DNA from: Minisyncoccota bacterium
GTDB lineage: Bacteria; Patescibacteriota; Minisyncoccia; UBA6257; GWB1-50-10
Assembly: GCA_041917695.1 (NCBI GenBank)
Contig: JAYRXE010000037.1
Span: 536,173 to 600,172, forward strand
Direction: 5' to 3'
Length of the DNA: 64,000 nucleotides
Shown here: positions 2,575-59,216 of the stretch, piece after piece
How the letters are laid out: each line of letters starts with the position of its first letter
How positions within the stretch are numbered: the first letter of the stretch is position 1
Made by a program: the position numbers and the translations under genes
The notes under the pieces: model-generated
Seen by the model: only the letters and a program-made list of their open reading frames with translations
Databases searched by the model: none
What the model was told of the DNA's origin: nothing

Positions 2575-3552
2575 TTACTCAGAAAGGAAGCGCTCCGTGA
2601 CGGCGAAGGAGCCGATGCGGTGAATCTTCGGGCAGTCCATCTTCGCCGGCGCGCCGATCGGGAGCGTGAGCGAGGGAACGTCGTGGCCGAAATCCGCGCC
2701 GAAGAGAATCGGGAAATTATATCCGTCGGTCGCGCCCAAAACCACGTCTTCAAGCGCCAAAGGCTTATCAAGCGCGGCCCACAGGTCGTTATCACCCTCG
2801 ATCGGCTCGAGGTTCGTGATTTTCCCGACCACCATGCCTTCGATCTTCTTGAAGACTTTCGCAACGCGAAGGCGCCACAAATAATTATCTATCTCCTCGA
2901 TGGTGGCATTCACTTCTTCCCAAAAGAGTATCTTCCCGTCCCACTTCGGCTCATACGGCGTGCCAAGCAAGCTGCACAGAATATTCAGATTGCCGCCGAC
3001 GAGCTCCCCTTCCGCGCGCCCGGGCTTCAAGGCCTTCCATTCGGTGAACGCTTTGTATTTCTCCGGCACACCCTTCATAAGGGAGTCCTTCAACGACGTT
3101 GCCGTGTATTTGCCGCCCTTCGTGCGCGGCGAATCGAGCGTTTCAATCGTCGGGCCGTGGAACGTTACGAGTCCGGTCTTCTGGTTTATCGCATTCAAGA
3201 GCGTCGTGATATCGGAAAACCCGATAAACACCTTCGGGTTTTTCTTTATGAGGTCCCAATCGATGTCGGGCAGAAGCTGGAGCGATGCGTAGCCGCCCGC
3301 CGTGCAGAAGATCCCCTTCACCTCGTCGTCCGCGAACATCGCGTGGAAGTCGGAAAGGCGGTCCTCACGCGGCCCCGCCTGGTAGTTGCCATGCACCGCA
3401 AAGGCGCGGGGACCGAGCTTCGGCTTGAAACCGAGGCTCTCAAGGACTTTAATGCCGTACGAAAGGTCCTCCTTCGAAACGACGGGGCTCGAAGGCGAAA
3501 TAACGCCGATTATATCTCCTTTTTTCAGTTTTGGGGGCTTTATCGGGTCCAT
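2575..3552 (-). CDS. ldcA: LD-carboxypeptidase (peptidase S66, muramoyl-tetrapeptide carboxypeptidase)
   Basis: GDIIGVISPSSP N-terminal motif, S66 family length and layout. Confidence 0.75.
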   Translation of the reverse strand: MDPIKPPKLKKGDIIGVISPSSPVVSKEDLSYGIKVLESLGFKPKLGPRAFAVHGNYQAGPREDRLSDFHAMFADDEVKGIFCTAGGYASLQLLPDIDWDLIKKNPKVFIGFSDITTLLNAINQKTGLVTFHGPTIETLDSPRTKGGKYTATSLKDSLMKGVPEKYKAFTEWKALKPGRAEGELVGGNLNILCSLLGTPYEPKWDGKILFWEEVNATIEEIDNYLWRLRVAKVFKKIEGMVVGKITNLEPIEGDNDLWAALDKPLALEDVVLGATDGYNFPILFGADFGHDVPSLTLPIGAPAKMDCPKIHRIGSFAVTERFLSE

Positions 3553-3651
3553 AATAGGGGGTGGGGTTTTGAAGCCTCGGGATTATACCCGGAATGGCCC
3601 TTCCCGGCAATCAGAGGTATTTTTGCCCTTCACATGTATACTTAAAGCCAT

Positions 3652-4203
3652 ATGGAGCATAAAAAACTCGGCGATAAGACCCTTTTCCTCTTTGTTTTAA
3701 AGCGGAGCGGGTTCTTTTTTCTTTCGCTCATCGTACTCTTTGCCGTCATCGGCTTGTGGGGAATACTTCCGGAATCCCTGCAACGGTATGTGGCGCTCGC
3801 AAATTTTCTCTTTGTCGTTTTCGTGCTCATTGTCGCGGCGGCGACCTTCGGCATCGCCTCCCTGGAATACCGCAATTACACCATCTCCGTCCTCGAGAAA
3901 AACGTGAAAATCACCCGCGGCATCCTAAACCGCGTCGAAATCGGCATTCCCTACCGCCGCGTGAAGCGCGTCGACATTATTCGTACGCTCATGTGCCAAC
4001 TTCTCGGCGTTTCGAACATCCTCATCACGACCCTCGGCGACGATGACGAGACGTCGCACGACGACGAAGTATTGCTCCCCTACATCGCAAAGCCGCTTGC
4101 CGAAAAAATCCAGCACGAAATCCTCCAGCACGCCCAAGTGGAGCAGATTGCCATGGCGCATCCCGGCGCCTCTCCCGAAGAAACGGCTTCCCGGCAGGGC
4201 TAA
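3652..4203 (+). CDS. membrane protein with bacterial PH (bPH_2/YdbS-like) domain
   Basis: Two N-terminal TM helices then ...ITRGILNRVEIGIPYRRVKRVDIIRTLMCQLLGVSNILITTLGDDDE (bPH_2-like). Confidence 0.5.
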   Translation: MEHKKLGDKTLFLFVLKRSGFFFLSLIVLFAVIGLWGILPESLQRYVALANFLFVVFVLIVAAATFGIASLEYRNYTISVLEKNVKITRGILNRVEIGIPYRRVKRVDIIRTLMCQLLGVSNILITTLGDDDETSHDDEVLLPYIAKPLAEKIQHEILQHAQVEQIAMAHPGASPEETASRQG

Positions 4204-43983: not shown

Positions 43984-44077
43984 GCGAACCTCCCTAATTT
44001 ATTTAAAAGTTAATGATTGCTACCCCGAAAAATACAAGGAATATTAGGATACGTCAAGATAACATGCGCGCACGAAC

Positions 44078-44106
44078 AAAAACGCCCTTATCGGGCGCTT
44101 TTGTTT
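44078..44106 (-). terminator. intrinsic terminator downstream of tRNA-Gly
   Basis: aaaacgccc-ttat-cgggcgcttttgtttt. Confidence 0.55.
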
Positions 44107-44109
44107 TAG

Positions 44110-44180
44110 TGCGGGCAAGGAGAATCGAACTCCTACATTCTCGTTGGCAACGAGATAGTCTACCATTAACTTATGCCCGC
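44110..44180 (-). tRNA. tRNA-Gly (GCC)
   Basis: Acceptor GCGGGCA/UGCCCGC, anticodon loop UUGCCAA, T-loop UUCGAUU. Confidence 0.8.
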
Positions 44181-46525: not shown

Positions 46526-46587
46526 CCCCTTCCTCGTTCCTTAGTAAGTCTACCAGAAAGAGGAGGGTTTTGCTCCCGAGCGAACAA

Positions 46588-46612
46588 AAACACCCGTTCC
46601 GGGTGTTTTTGT
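46588..46612 (-). terminator. intrinsic terminator downstream of tRNA-Arg
   Basis: aaaaacacccg-ttcc-gggtgttttt. Confidence 0.55.
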
Positions 46613-46617
46613 TTTAG

Positions 46618-46689
46618 TGCCCTCGTGAGGAGTCGAACCTCAATTACAAGATCCGCAATCTTGCGTCCTATCCATTGAACGACGAGGGC
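46618..46689 (-). tRNA. tRNA-Arg, anticodon GCG as folded manually (unusual; needs tool confirmation)
   Basis: Acceptor GCCCUCG/CGAGGGC, anticodon stem CAAGA/UCUUG with loop UUGCGGA, T-arm UGAGG-UUCGACU-CCUCA. Confidence 0.6.
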
Positions 46690-49306: not shown

Positions 49307-50398
49307 ATGAATAAAAACATATTGTTGTGGGTAGGTATCGTGCTCGCCGTCGCCCTTACGGGAGCCGCCATCTACTACGCAAAAAACGATGCAGGCACGG
49401 GGGCGACAAACGCGACGTCGACGGAAAGCAACGCGACGTCTACCGCAACCTCCACGCAAAACGAGGGACGCGAGCCCGCAGCGCCCGCCGCTCTCACGAG
49501 TTCGAACGTGACGGTTTCGAATTCATCCGCCGTCGTAACGGGAACGGTCACCCCGAACGGCGCGCAGACCACGTATTGGTATGAATTCGGGAAGACCGCA
49601 AACTTGGGGCTGAAAACCGCCGCAAAGACCGTCGGTTCCGGCTTTGCCGCCATCCCCGCTCCTGAATACATCACGGGGCTTTCGGCGAACACCCAGTATT
49701 ACTTCCGCCTCGTCGCGAAAAATTCCCTGGGCACGTCGAATGGCGCGATCCGCTCGTTCACCACGAACATGATTCCGCCCCAGCAGGGCTCCGCGCCGAG
49801 CGTGTCGAGCGCGGGCGCCGCGTCCATCACGAAATCATCGGCGACGATCCGAGGTAACGTGAATCCGAACGGATGGGACACCTCGTACTGGTTTGAATTC
49901 GGCGAGACGGCGAACCTCGGGAACGTCACCGCGTTCCAGTCCGCCGGCGGAGGGAAGGTCGCCGTAAATGTTTCGGCGGTGCTTTCCGGCCTCAAACCCT
50001 CGACGCGCTATTACTATCGCGTGAACGCCCAAAACCAATTCGGCACGGTGAACGGCGCGGTCTTGAGCTTCGATACGGCGGGACCGGTCGTACCGACCGT
50101 CACCACGAATCCCCCGACCTCCATCACGGGAGTGGCCGCGAGCTTGAACGGCCGCATCGACCCGAAAGGGCTCGAAGCGACGTATTGGTTCGAATACTGG
50201 ACCGACGCGTCGACGCCGGGAACCTCGGTGCTCACCACGCCGAAGCAGACCCTTTCGGCCGACTCGGCTCGCAACGTGAGCGTCACCGTAACCAATCTCT
50301 CGCTCAACACGAAGTACCACGTCCGCCTGGTGGTGACGAACGAATCGGGACCGGTCTACGGAAACACCATAGACTTCCAGACTCGCGCTTCGCGATAA
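49307..50398 (+). CDS. secreted protein with three ~100-aa internal repeats (Ig/FN3-like)
   Basis: Signal peptide; repeats starting TYWYEFGKTANLG / SYWFEFGETANLG / TYWFEYWTDASTPG. Confidence 0.55.
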   Translation: MNKNILLWVGIVLAVALTGAAIYYAKNDAGTGATNATSTESNATSTATSTQNEGREPAAPAALTSSNVTVSNSSAVVTGTVTPNGAQTTYWYEFGKTANLGLKTAAKTVGSGFAAIPAPEYITGLSANTQYYFRLVAKNSLGTSNGAIRSFTTNMIPPQQGSAPSVSSAGAASITKSSATIRGNVNPNGWDTSYWFEFGETANLGNVTAFQSAGGGKVAVNVSAVLSGLKPSTRYYYRVNAQNQFGTVNGAVLSFDTAGPVVPTVTTNPPTSITGVAASLNGRIDPKGLEATYWFEYWTDASTPGTSVLTTPKQTLSADSARNVSVTVTNLSLNTKYHVRLVVTNESGPVYGNTIDFQTRASR

Positions 50399-50422
50399 CA
50401 CACTCATCTCCTGAGATAACAA

Positions 50423-50449
50423 AAAGACCTTCGTAAGAAGGTCTTTTTG
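50423..50449 (+). terminator. intrinsic terminator
   Basis: aaaagacct-tcgtaa-gaaggtctttttg. Confidence 0.6.
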
Positions 50450-50454
50450 TTCTT

Positions 50455-50617
50455 GGTAGCTCCACGGGGAATCTCACGCGCTTCGCTTTCTGAAACCCGA
50501 CGGTTTCAGTACTTCCGTCTTGGGGAAACATCCGTTTCCCCATCGCCCCTTTAGGTTCAATTCCCGAAAGACCCAAAAACCAAATGGCCGCATTATGCGG
50601 CCATGTGGGGTTTCTTG
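50455..50617 (-). repeat. tRNA-Glu-associated hairpin element ending in an 18-nt (up to 23-nt with one indel) copy of the tRNA-Glu 3' end
   Basis: Direct repeat gtagctccacggggaatc at 50457-50474 and 50617-50634; perfect hairpins 50490-50509 (CUGAAACC/GGUUUCAG) and 50522-50541 (GGGGAAAC/GUUUCCCC); terminator hairpin 50584-50604; no 5' acceptor partner, so not a complete tRNA. Confidence 0.5.
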
Positions 50618-50689
50618 TAGCTCCACGGGGAATCGAACCCCGATTTCCGCCGTGAAAGGGCGGCGTCCTAGCCGTTAGACGATGAAGCC
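50618..50689 (-). tRNA. tRNA-Glu (TTC)
   Basis: D-arm UCGUCUAACGGCUAGGAC, anticodon loop CUUUCAC, T-arm CGGGG-UUCGAUU-CCCCG; acceptor has two G-U pairs. Confidence 0.75.
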
Positions 50690-58537: not shown

Positions 58538-58934
58538 AACGTTACGTATTAGTAGATAAACGACTTTACTCCAAGTATAGAAAAGTGGAATTATATGTCA
58601 AGCGGGTTCGAGTCTTTCACTTATTCATAATTGATAATCCAGCAAATTTATATAGAAACAGAGCATATTGCCTTTTATTATGACAAGCGGAAATATACAT
58701 TTTTACAGTGTTATCCAAAATGTCCTTTATCTAAGCTATATTTTCTCCTTTTTTTACAAGTCAAAATGGAGTTTGAAAATATTCATAAAATTTCCACTGC
58801 ATATAGAGGCCCTATACTAGGTTTTGATAAATGAGTCCTAATTAAGCACCGACGTGAAAGACGTGCATTCTTCGAACATATATCGTCGGCTCGACCAAAG
58901 GAAGACCCAAGACTGAGCCTCGGGCCTTCCGATA

Positions 58935-59129
58935 AGAAAAATTCGTGCGGAGGCGGAAGGCAAGACGAGATTCGAACGCGCTCACTGCCGTTCGCTTTTG
59001 AAAACCCTCGGTTTTCAATACTTTCCTACACAGGGAACCGGGCGCGGTTCCCTGACACCTTCCACTGTTCGAATCCTCTGAACTGACACGGAATACAAAT
59101 ACCGGCATAAAGCCGGTATTTTTATTCAG
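58935..59129 (-). repeat. tRNA-Ser-associated hairpin element ending in a copy of the tRNA-Ser 3' end
   Basis: Direct repeat gcggaggcggaagg at 58937-58950 and 59129-59142, plus attcgaac in both; perfect hairpins 59021-59044 (10 bp) and 58988-59008 (8 bp); conserved spacers GGAAAGUA and AAGCGAA shared with the Glu-associated element; terminator hairpin 59101-59120. Confidence 0.5.
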
Positions 59130-59216
59130 CGGAGGCGGAAGGATTCGAACCTTCGGTCCGGTTCCCCGGACAACTTCTTAGCAGGAAGTTGCTTTCGACC
59201 GCTCAGCCACGCCTCC
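59130..59216 (-). tRNA. tRNA-Ser (GCT), long variable arm
   Basis: Acceptor GGAGGCG/CGCCUCC, anticodon loop CUGCUAA, variable arm UGUCCGGGGAACCGGACC, T-loop UUCGAAU. Confidence 0.8.

Follow-up and report, generated by a model that had tools for sequence, protein, structure and literature searches.

The DNA analysed here is a 64 kb (64,000-nucleotide) stretch of a Minisyncoccota bacterium contig (JAYRXE010000037.1), hereafter the window, and the subject of this report is a small structured element that follows two of its 12 tRNA genes. One copy lies behind tRNA-Glu(UUC), an intact gene on the minus strand (50617–50689; called by ARAGORN and by the Rfam tRNA model at 60.2 bits) that hosts the insertion described below. 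The last 18 nt of this gene, GATTCCCCGTGGAGCTAC (50617–50634; direct repeat copy 1, DR1), span the end of the T-loop, the 3′ strand of the T-stem, the 3′ strand of the acceptor stem and the discriminator, and belong to the functional tRNA. An exact second copy (DR2) lies on the same strand at 50456–50473. GATTCCCCGTGGAGCTAC occurs exactly twice, and when two 1-nt indels are allowed the repeat grows to ~25 nt; the chance expectation for an 18-nt exact repeat within ~200 nt is ~3e-9. DR2 is followed by CA, such that the sequence reads ...GCUACCA to position 50454 (CCA, 50454–50456). Of the window's 12 tRNAs, those for Glu and Ser are the only two with a downstream repeat of the 3′ end.

The two repeats of the Glu copy are separated by 143 nt without a credible open reading frame (ORF). 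Read along the minus strand, an 8-nt spacer after the tRNA leads to a terminator-like hairpin, t1 (CCACATGGCCGC-ATAAT-GCGGCCATTTGG, then a U-rich run; 50580–50608), detected in a terminator scan. There follows A′ (UUGGGUCUUUCGGGAAUUGAACC; 50554–50576), which duplex energy and the consensus fold identify as a degenerate antisense copy of tRNA positions ~53–73. A purine-rich conserved junction, J1/2 (UAAAGGGGCGAU, or GGAAAGGGGUC in other copies; 50542–50553), connects A′ to hairpin P2 (GGGGAAAC-GGAU-GUUUCCCC; 50522–50541), seen in the sequence, in the fold and by covariation. Junction J2/3 (AAGACGGAAGUA; 50510–50521), which includes a conserved GGAAGUA, precedes hairpin P3 (CUGAAACC-GUCG-GGUUUCAG; 50490–50509), evident in sequence and fold; both hairpins have perfect 8-bp stems and 4-nt loops. 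In the alignment, J3/P4 (AAAGCGAAGCGCG; 50477–50489) holds a conserved AAGCGAA and the short helix P4 (GCG-AAG-CGC). Finally, the 3′ strand of a closing helix, P1, starts with the T-loop-like UGAGAUU, conserved across copies, and runs into DR2 (50456–50476). Beyond DR2 lies a second terminator hairpin, t2 (AAAAAGACC-TTCTTAC-GAAGGTCTTTTT; 50418–50448). The structured stretch between t1 and t2 is ~120 nt long, and the single-sequence fold of the Glu copy is more stable than those of shuffled sequences (z = -2.2). A sequence-only reading of the window had described a terminator hairpin, two perfect 8-bp hairpins, a tRNA 3′-end repeat with CCA after it and ~140 nt of gene-less DNA at this locus; all of these are present, with the loops having been quoted from the plus strand.

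The same reading reported a Ser-linked copy, which is genuine. It occupies 58945–59128 on the minus strand, scores 80.8 bits (E 2e-21) with a covariance model built from six sequences, and follows tRNA-Ser(GCU) (59129–59216, minus strand; ARAGORN), whose 3′ end supplies DR1 (CCTTCCGCCTCCGC; 59129–59142). The parts recur in order on the same strand: t1 (59097–59121), A′ (GAGGAUUCGAAC, the reverse complement of the Ser T-loop; 59066–59080), P2 (59031–59054), P3 (58998–59018), an extended P4 (58973–58997), a sense copy of the T-loop (GCGCGUUCGAAUC; 58969–58981), an 8-nt insert (58961–58968) and DR2 (58947–58960). The two copies align with 73% column identity. Both hairpins of the Ser copy differ in sequence from those of the Glu copy with pairing kept, and the Ser fold is again more stable than its shuffles (z = -3.06).

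Neither ARAGORN nor Rfam assigns the element to a known RNA family. No Rfam family other than tRNA was found at the gathering threshold across the whole window or at E values up to 5–10 on three copies, in which the permissive matches, tRNA aside, all fall far below the family gathering score. A tRNA or tRNA pseudogene (RF00005) is rejected, as ARAGORN and Rfam call the upstream tRNAs only and nothing over 50454–50576 or 58945–59090. A coding role is rejected as well: the ORFs at 50304–50576 and 58842–59108 cross terminators, and the frame shifts between copies via indels in conserved blocks. Nor is this a group I intron, given an uninterrupted tRNA, an element of ~120 nt and no Rfam intron match; known tRNA introns of Patescibacteria sit at position 35/36 (PMC13011429).

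Further copies were found in other Patescibacteria by pattern scans, synteny walks and the covariance model. Exact-pattern scans were run once over species-representative genomes and once over metagenomes. The first returned 13 loci, with ~10 expected by chance, and two were genuine: L004, a Patescibacteria metagenome-assembled genome (MAG) with the element after tRNA-Glu, and L015, a MAG labelled Bdellovibrionales whose DnaJ is closest to Moranbacteria, with the element after tRNA-Lys. The metagenome scan added L016, which is the same locus as L004, and L018, where the element directly follows tRNA-Met with no terminator between. A strain 98.9% identical to the window, L001, has a Glu copy that differs by five substitutions and one indel, and L084 also has the element after tRNA-Glu (112 bits). 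Covariance model scores across all copies range from 81 to 131 bits. Homologous cores follow four tRNA types (Glu, Ser, Lys and Met) and are spread over at least four genomes. None of the outcomes that the sequence-only reading had named as refuting it was observed, since further copies exist, relatives vary in carrying the element and no known RNA family applies. Run without filters, the covariance model gave no additional weak copies in the window, and full-text literature searches turned up no described equivalent. The family is real and previously undescribed, and belongs to the kind of elements integrated at tRNA 3′ ends, with an unusual anatomy and potentially novel targeting.

Every copy is co-oriented with its tRNA, measures 125–185 nt, and ends in a duplicate of that tRNA's own 3′ end. 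The direct repeat is 14 nt plus a 9-nt T-loop piece 8 nt away in the Ser copy, 18 nt in the window's Glu copy and in L004/L084, 23 nt in the Met copy (L018) and 42 nt in the Lys copy (L015), where it takes in the locus's own terminator. In four families, its 5′ edge falls at tRNA positions 57–61; the Ser copy resembles its tRNA from position 53 onwards, with a break at the 8-nt insert. The 3′ edge is variable, lying 1 to 27 nt beyond the discriminator. CCA follows the tail in Glu copies only and is gene-encoded in L004/L084, whereas the tails of L015, L018 and the Ser copy hold genomic trailer, which does not support reverse transcription of a mature tRNA as a general rule. A terminator hairpin precedes the element in four of the five families, and t1 and t2 are dissimilar while DR2 stays identical to the tRNA. 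The genes flanking the element are unrelated housekeeping genes that differ from locus to locus, among them FabH-like, Fn3, DnaJ, thioredoxin, GIY-YIG and sigma70 genes, and no integrase or other gene is shared between the loci. The 25 commonest of the 52 Pfam families in the 63 window ORFs include no recombinase family. Two classes of gene-less mobile DNA can be set aside on these features. Miniature inverted-repeat transposable elements (MITEs) do not fit duplications of ~14, 18, 18, 23 and 42 nt and an inverted A′/A pair that is target-derived and differs per locus (A being the repeated tRNA end). A miniature IS200/IS605 element or omega-RNA does not fit a long duplication in every copy, and a Y1 transposase was seen only in L072 and L073, which lack the element.

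Relatives recovered by a search with the sigma-70 protein adjoining the tRNA-Glu of L004 differ in whether they carry the element. All share the gene order TsaD / sigma70 / tRNA-Glu / thioredoxin / FeThRed. L004 and L084 (protein identity 88%) are filled; L077 (77%) and L079/L081 (70%), from two species, are empty, with the same tRNA-Glu and no element. Filled and empty loci differ by a single 167-nt indel bounded by the 18-nt repeat TTCCCCGTAGCGGTACCA (BLAST, MAFFT), which gives a precise empty site. The sequence past the second repeat of the filled locus (...CATCAAAACGAGTTTTT...) is orthologous to that directly after the tRNA in L077; what came in was therefore t1, A′, the core and a single repeat unit, and of the two terminators the second is native. 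This clean, repeat-bounded indel, with the native terminator after the second repeat, shows that the element is a precise insertion, which leaves an intact tRNA upstream and displaces the original 3′ end and the native terminator downstream. Gain is the parsimonious reading of the filled/empty difference. By analogy with the alignment of L084 and L077, t1 of the window would likewise have arrived with the insertion, and t2 would be the original terminator of tRNA-Glu, since in the empty L077 the hairpin that filled loci have beyond DR2 comes directly after the tRNA. At the tRNA-Lys locus, L072 and L073, whose DnaJ is 81% identical to that of L015, have an identical tRNA-Lys and the same terminator hairpin without the element. 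A synteny walk with the FabH-like gene of the window reached relatives no more than 51% identical, with no tRNA-Glu nearby, and no exact record was found for the protein near tRNA-Ser.

Repeats of the tRNA 3′ end that flank an insert and leave the tRNA intact are the classic footprint of attL and attR, and one of the options raised by the sequence-only reading was an att scar, whereby the insert would be what remains of a bigger island or prophage with an integrase, which entered at the tRNA and has since shed its interior. In L080 and L082, variable DNA starts exactly after the CCA, marking the tRNA-Glu end as an insertion hot spot and lending this idea some appeal. Nonetheless, it is the least supported explanation and a very improbable one, because at least five independent loci share one ~95-nt core with the same boundaries, which decay at each locus separately would not leave behind. 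The core also undergoes compensatory evolution, and no homologue of it was found by blastn in 50,697 phage and 72,556 plasmid records or in IMG/VR, where pattern scans gave chance matches only (0 of 50 pattern matches confirmed by the covariance model).

Several other insertions were noted around the same tRNAs. In L080 (6246–7700) and L082 (2019–3473), unrelated DNA starts exactly past the CCA of tRNA-Glu, replacing thioredoxin; the sigma70 protein is identical to that of L079, and the gene at the variable junction encodes ~396 aa with no Pfam match. In the lineage of L079, L080 and L082, the junction at the 3′ end of tRNA-Glu varies between strains. Immediately upstream of the intact tRNA-Glu, a GIY-YIG endonuclease ORF (81 aa) is found in L077 (2924–3255), L079 (5841–6170) and L004 (~3599–3931), preceded by a duplicated 5′ half of the tRNA (positions 1–33, to the anticodon loop). 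L084 lacks this cassette and yet has the 3′ element. This is a second, independent insertion in the tRNA-Glu gene, and it looks like a free-standing homing-endonuclease cassette that restores the tRNA via the 5′-half copy. The duplicated 5′ half is itself split in the D-loop by a 43-nt GC-rich hairpin, CCCGCCTCGACTCGCGGAAACGACCGCTCGTCGACGCGAGGCGGG (L077, 2946–2988; L079, 5864–5906), a third kind of small insertion at tRNA-Glu. At the Lys locus, L072 (4140–4234), like L073, has an exact 11-nt copy of the tRNA-Lys 5′ end, GCGCCTATAGC, then two or three hairpins, one with a GCAA loop. This unit, absent from L015, sits between the promoter and tRNA-Lys as a mirror-image analogue of the 3′ element. 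A gene for a Y1 transposase (195 aa; IS200-like or associated with repetitive extragenic palindromes) adjoins dnaJ in L072 (1460–2047) and L073 (203–790). In L015, a run of N (3418–3517) hides part of dnaJ, and the ORF therefore looks truncated (306 aa versus ~370).

The part of the element common to all loci is a core of ~95 nt, formed by helices P2, P3 and P4 and the conserved junctions GGAAAGGGGUC, GGAAGUA and AAGCGAA. In the alignment, closing helix P1 places the A′ segment AAUCGAAC opposite GUGAGAUU, with a conserved tandem G.A/A.G, and P4 is extended in other copies to C(G/A)C-AGUGA-G(C/U)G. Seven aligned sequences give 92% paired cells and nine base pairs with changes on both sides; no shuffle among 500 reaches these values, though the sequences are few and the alignment was fitted to the model. 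When partners are slid by 1–3 columns, pairing collapses to 27–57%. P2 shows changes on both sides in four of its nine pairs, with 98% of cells paired; in P3, the closing pair swaps from C-G to U-A across copies, and the Ser copy gains one A-U pair. Stronger evidence comes from L084 and L004, which descend from one insertion: they have five differences in the 167-nt insert, two of which make up a compensatory swap in P4 (CGC...GCG to CAC...GUG). Between these two genomes, the tRNA/element/thioredoxin block is 94.4% identical, compared with 89.8% for the TsaD–sigma70 block. The element differences between the window and L001 fall at loop positions, convert G-C to G.U and U.G to C-G, and in one case break a P1 pair. 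Within the limits of a small, model-fitted alignment, these data show the core to be under structural constraint, in keeping with the structured-family option raised from sequence.

Which strand is folded can be judged from the loops. On the tRNA-sense strand, four of ~10 independent hairpin loops are GNRA (GUGA, GGGA, GCAA and GAGA), versus none on the other strand, and this favours a single-stranded molecule of the sense strand, most simply an RNA made by read-through from the tRNA promoter. No separate promoter was predicted for the element. One might regard the element as mainly a functional small RNA gene in a tRNA operon, expressed as a stable RNA of ~120 nt that RNase P would cut out of the tRNA read-through transcript and that would be trimmed at its 3′ end and given CCA. 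Its A′/A stem would imitate an acceptor/T minihelix, and the repeat would be a by-product of partial duplication or of tRNA-anchored recombination. Structural selection after insertion, the sense-strand GNRA loops, the constant co-orientation with a tRNA and the missing promoter all speak for such a gene, as do the Met copy with no terminator between tRNA and element, the Glu copy that ends in ...CCA, and a second repeat with no change from the tRNA sequence while t1 and t2 are dissimilar. On the other hand, most families place a terminator hairpin ahead of the element, the CCA is confined to Glu copies, and the geometry of the A′/A stem is not conserved, with bulges and deletions that differ per copy. 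The element is also patchy and rare, with close relatives lacking it, and no functional partner or target is identifiable. Overall, we regard an RNA gene as a possible but doubtful account.

The sequence-only reading held that the repeat copy has no 5′ partner with which to fold. This proved wrong. A′ directly follows t1 and, in the Glu copy, compares with the reverse complement of the tRNA end as UUGGGUCUUUCGGGAAUUGAACC to UAGCUCCACGGGGAAUCGAACC. The duplex between A′ of the window's Glu copy and the tRNA end has a predicted energy of -25.5 kcal/mol, versus -11.1 ± 2.9 for shuffles, none of 1000 being as good. The duplicated tail can therefore pair after all. Every copy has the reverse complement of the T-loop in its A′, and in the Glu and Lys copies A′ covers the T-stem and acceptor strand too. 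Against 1000 shuffles each, A′ paired with its cognate tRNA end beats all in both Glu lineages and all but 10 in the Lys and Ser copies; the Met A′ is weak, with 71 of 1000 shuffles as good. In sum, four of five families show significant complementarity between A′ and the cognate tRNA end. A′ is able to pair with DR2, forming the closing helix P1, or with the 3′ part of the tRNA itself. In the minimum free energy fold of the co-transcript, A′ pairs with the tRNA's 3′ part across the terminator and the 5′ strand of the tRNA pairs with the distant copy, as opposed to the P1 pairing, so that the segments A, A′ and A can form alternative structures. The stretch from A through A′ (A - x - A′, x being the terminator hairpin) folds as one long hairpin, which draws a weak miRNA-precursor-like score in Rfam.

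These properties of A′ raise the question of whether it directs the element to its target. In a guide-directed or retro-type mini-element, A′ would act as an internal guide, or as an analogue of a primer-binding site, that pairs as RNA or DNA with the tRNA 3′ end, selects where the element inserts and is re-templated for each target. Mobility would go through an RNA or other single-stranded intermediate, for example a circle A - x - A′ - core shaped like a rod. At several tRNA species, A′ is cognate to its own local tRNA, and it complements a contiguous stretch across the T-loop and repeat. In L084, one of two descendants of the only insertion that can be dated against empty relatives, it is a nearly perfect match to the tRNA (15/17). 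The nearly constant 5′ edge of the repeat, its variable 3′ edge and the long A - x - A′ hairpin would also be in line with guided copying. However, no reverse transcriptase or nuclease is linked to the element, and one survey detected no group II introns among 95 complete Patescibacteria genomes (PMC13011429), which tells against a retro-type element. In addition, the genomic trailer in the tails of L015, L018 and the Ser copy means that these were not copied from mature tRNA, and A′ of the Met and Ser copies is barely cognate. A guide-directed element is thus improbable in our estimation. Equally slim is the chance that the family forms a novel class of mobile elements without genes, made of RNA or single-stranded DNA (ssDNA), which carry an internal antisense guide to the last ~20 nt of a tRNA, select tRNA 3′ ends with it and can be retargeted between tRNA species. 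Its free form, on this improbable proposal, would be a rod-like circle or hairpin of ~125–185 nt, making it a viroid-sized replicon integrated in the chromosome or an integrative module directed by a guide.

The reading we prefer, which has about an even chance of being correct, is that the element is a non-coding, non-autonomous module that integrates at tRNA 3′ ends and carries a structured RNA as cargo. Much of what characterises integrative elements is present: tRNA 3′-end repeats of 14–42 nt in all copies, an intact tRNA at one junction and presence or absence with a precise empty site; a self-encoded integrase is not, there being no credible ORF in the element. The miniature tRNA-targeting insertion envisaged from sequence gains strength from the cores at four tRNA kinds in at least four genomes and from the filled/empty indel bounded by the repeat. 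Each copy is ordered as tRNA(...A) - x - A′ - core - A - native terminator, where A is the tRNA's last 14–42 bp, from the T-loop or just past it, and x a terminator hairpin, absent in one copy. This is exactly the order expected if a small donor, A - x - A′ - core, had undergone Campbell-type recombination with the tRNA gene inside A, and may be explained in this way. The catalyst could be a recombinase encoded elsewhere; alternatively, recombination might be anchored on the conserved tRNA sequence after DNA uptake. In a single-stranded form, whether read-through RNA from the tRNA promoter or ssDNA, A′ would pair with A, and the stem so formed would mimic either the acceptor/T stack of a tRNA or a duplex target while closing a multi-helix core selected for structure. 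If so, the presence of A′ is explained, because the recombining or functional form would be single-stranded and fold A′ onto A. In the DNA version, this fold would imitate the duplex end of the tRNA gene, in the way that CTX-phi attP, once folded, mimics dif (PMC3442271); in the RNA version, it would be an acceptor/T-like helix closing the core.

A number of points weigh against an integrating module. No recombinase, circular junction or excision product has been seen, which makes any mobilising step purely inferential. A double-stranded circle of 125–185 bp is physically awkward. The hardest fact for classical models is that near-identical cores stand at four tRNA species with cognate A and A′, since a classical integrase/attP system hardly changes its identity block without the rest diverging. 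The Lys repeat of L015, which includes the terminator, resembles a target duplication more than homology borne by the element. As regards A′, in L004 it has decayed relative to L084 (CUAAGG versus CUACGG, the latter matching the tRNA, turning C-G into A.G), its poor fit in the Met and Ser copies counts here as well, and its pairing may be a relic. The helices contain six G.U versus eight A.C combinations, and so carry no strand signal. The filled/empty comparisons are between species and not within one population, and loss by slippage between the repeats may be an alternative to gain. Lastly, the family is rare, with four genuine loci from two exact-pattern scans, one per public collection.

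If confirmed, this would be the smallest known integrative module that targets tRNA genes, and a rare mobile element whose only cargo is a structured RNA. The cores at Glu, Ser, Lys and Met would point either to a retargetable choice of site by base-pairing or to an unrecognised, tRNA-anchored mode of recombination that spreads in naturally competent, genome-reduced bacteria. The family also adds a candidate structured RNA from the Candidate Phyla Radiation, and explains tRNA 3′-end duplications that annotation pipelines would call pseudo-att sites.

The rest of the window fits a Patescibacteria chromosome, with genes for a type IV pilus, aminoacyl-tRNA synthetases and an NAD-dependent DNA ligase, and many ORFs without a Pfam match. 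CCA is encoded in tRNA-His only. In the protein collection searched, the FabH-like protein has its nearest homologue at 51% identity, beyond the near-identical (99%) strain. In that strain (L001, positions 1–593), the alignment to the window ends beyond 51276, upstream of a gene for 123 aa, and a second 123-aa ORF lies at 64–435; the difference is a local rearrangement or duplication between strains. Two further tRNA genes, tRNA-Gly(GCC) and tRNA-Arg(GCG), have a homologous trailer/terminator (76% over 58 nt; 44073–44130 and 46581–46638) that starts at the tRNA 3′ end as TAAAACAAAA-hairpin-TTTTTGTTCG, and it looks as though this terminator module was copied from one tRNA gene to another.

How does the element compare with known systems? 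Genomic islands and prophages integrate at tRNA genes by means of tyrosine integrases, and their gene-less derivatives are termed cis-mobilisable elements (CIMEs). Like these, the element is inserted at the tRNA 3′ end with direct repeats of the last 14–42 bp, an intact tRNA, a displaced terminator and empty relatives. Unlike them, it is 125–185 nt long, has no integrase, excisionase or ORF, and contains a covarying core and an antisense copy of the target, with near-identical cores at four tRNA species.

Integron attC is a recombination site that is folded from single-stranded DNA. The element resembles it and CTX-phi attP(+) in having imperfect inverted copies of the target, ~90 nt apart, that can fold as a mimic of the duplex target, and single-strand exchange predicts the observed order of target - rest - A′ - loop - target. 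Integration of CTX-phi proceeds by single-strand exchange (PMC3442271). The likeness is one of architecture only: here, the target is a tRNA end and not dif or attI, the arms differ per target and pair poorly in the Met and Ser copies, the whole element hardly exceeds the site itself, and no Xer or IntI dependence is known.

With MITEs and the palindrome-associated derivatives of IS200/IS605, including ends that bear an omega-RNA, the element shares its small size, lack of genes, abundance of hairpins and multiple copies, as well as a scaffold followed by a locus-specific 3′ tail of ~16 nt. It differs from them in having neither a duplication of fixed length nor terminal inverted repeats of its own, and no TnpA or TnpB is linked to it; IS200/IS605 elements are not known to make any target duplication. 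A further difference is that the tail copies an upstream target that is still intact, so that an omega-RNA guide of this kind would target its own locus. Finally, stable RNAs occur in the tRNA clusters of phage T4. In common with these, with the tRNA-like domain of tmRNA and with bacterial Y RNAs, which are tRNA-like (PMC4201824), the element has ends that can pair as an acceptor/T-like helix with a single-stranded 3′ tail, and it lies in a tRNA transcription unit. In contrast to these, its core matches no tRNA, tmRNA or Y RNA model, its helix is variable, and the 3′ strand of that helix is a literal copy of the neighbouring tRNA.

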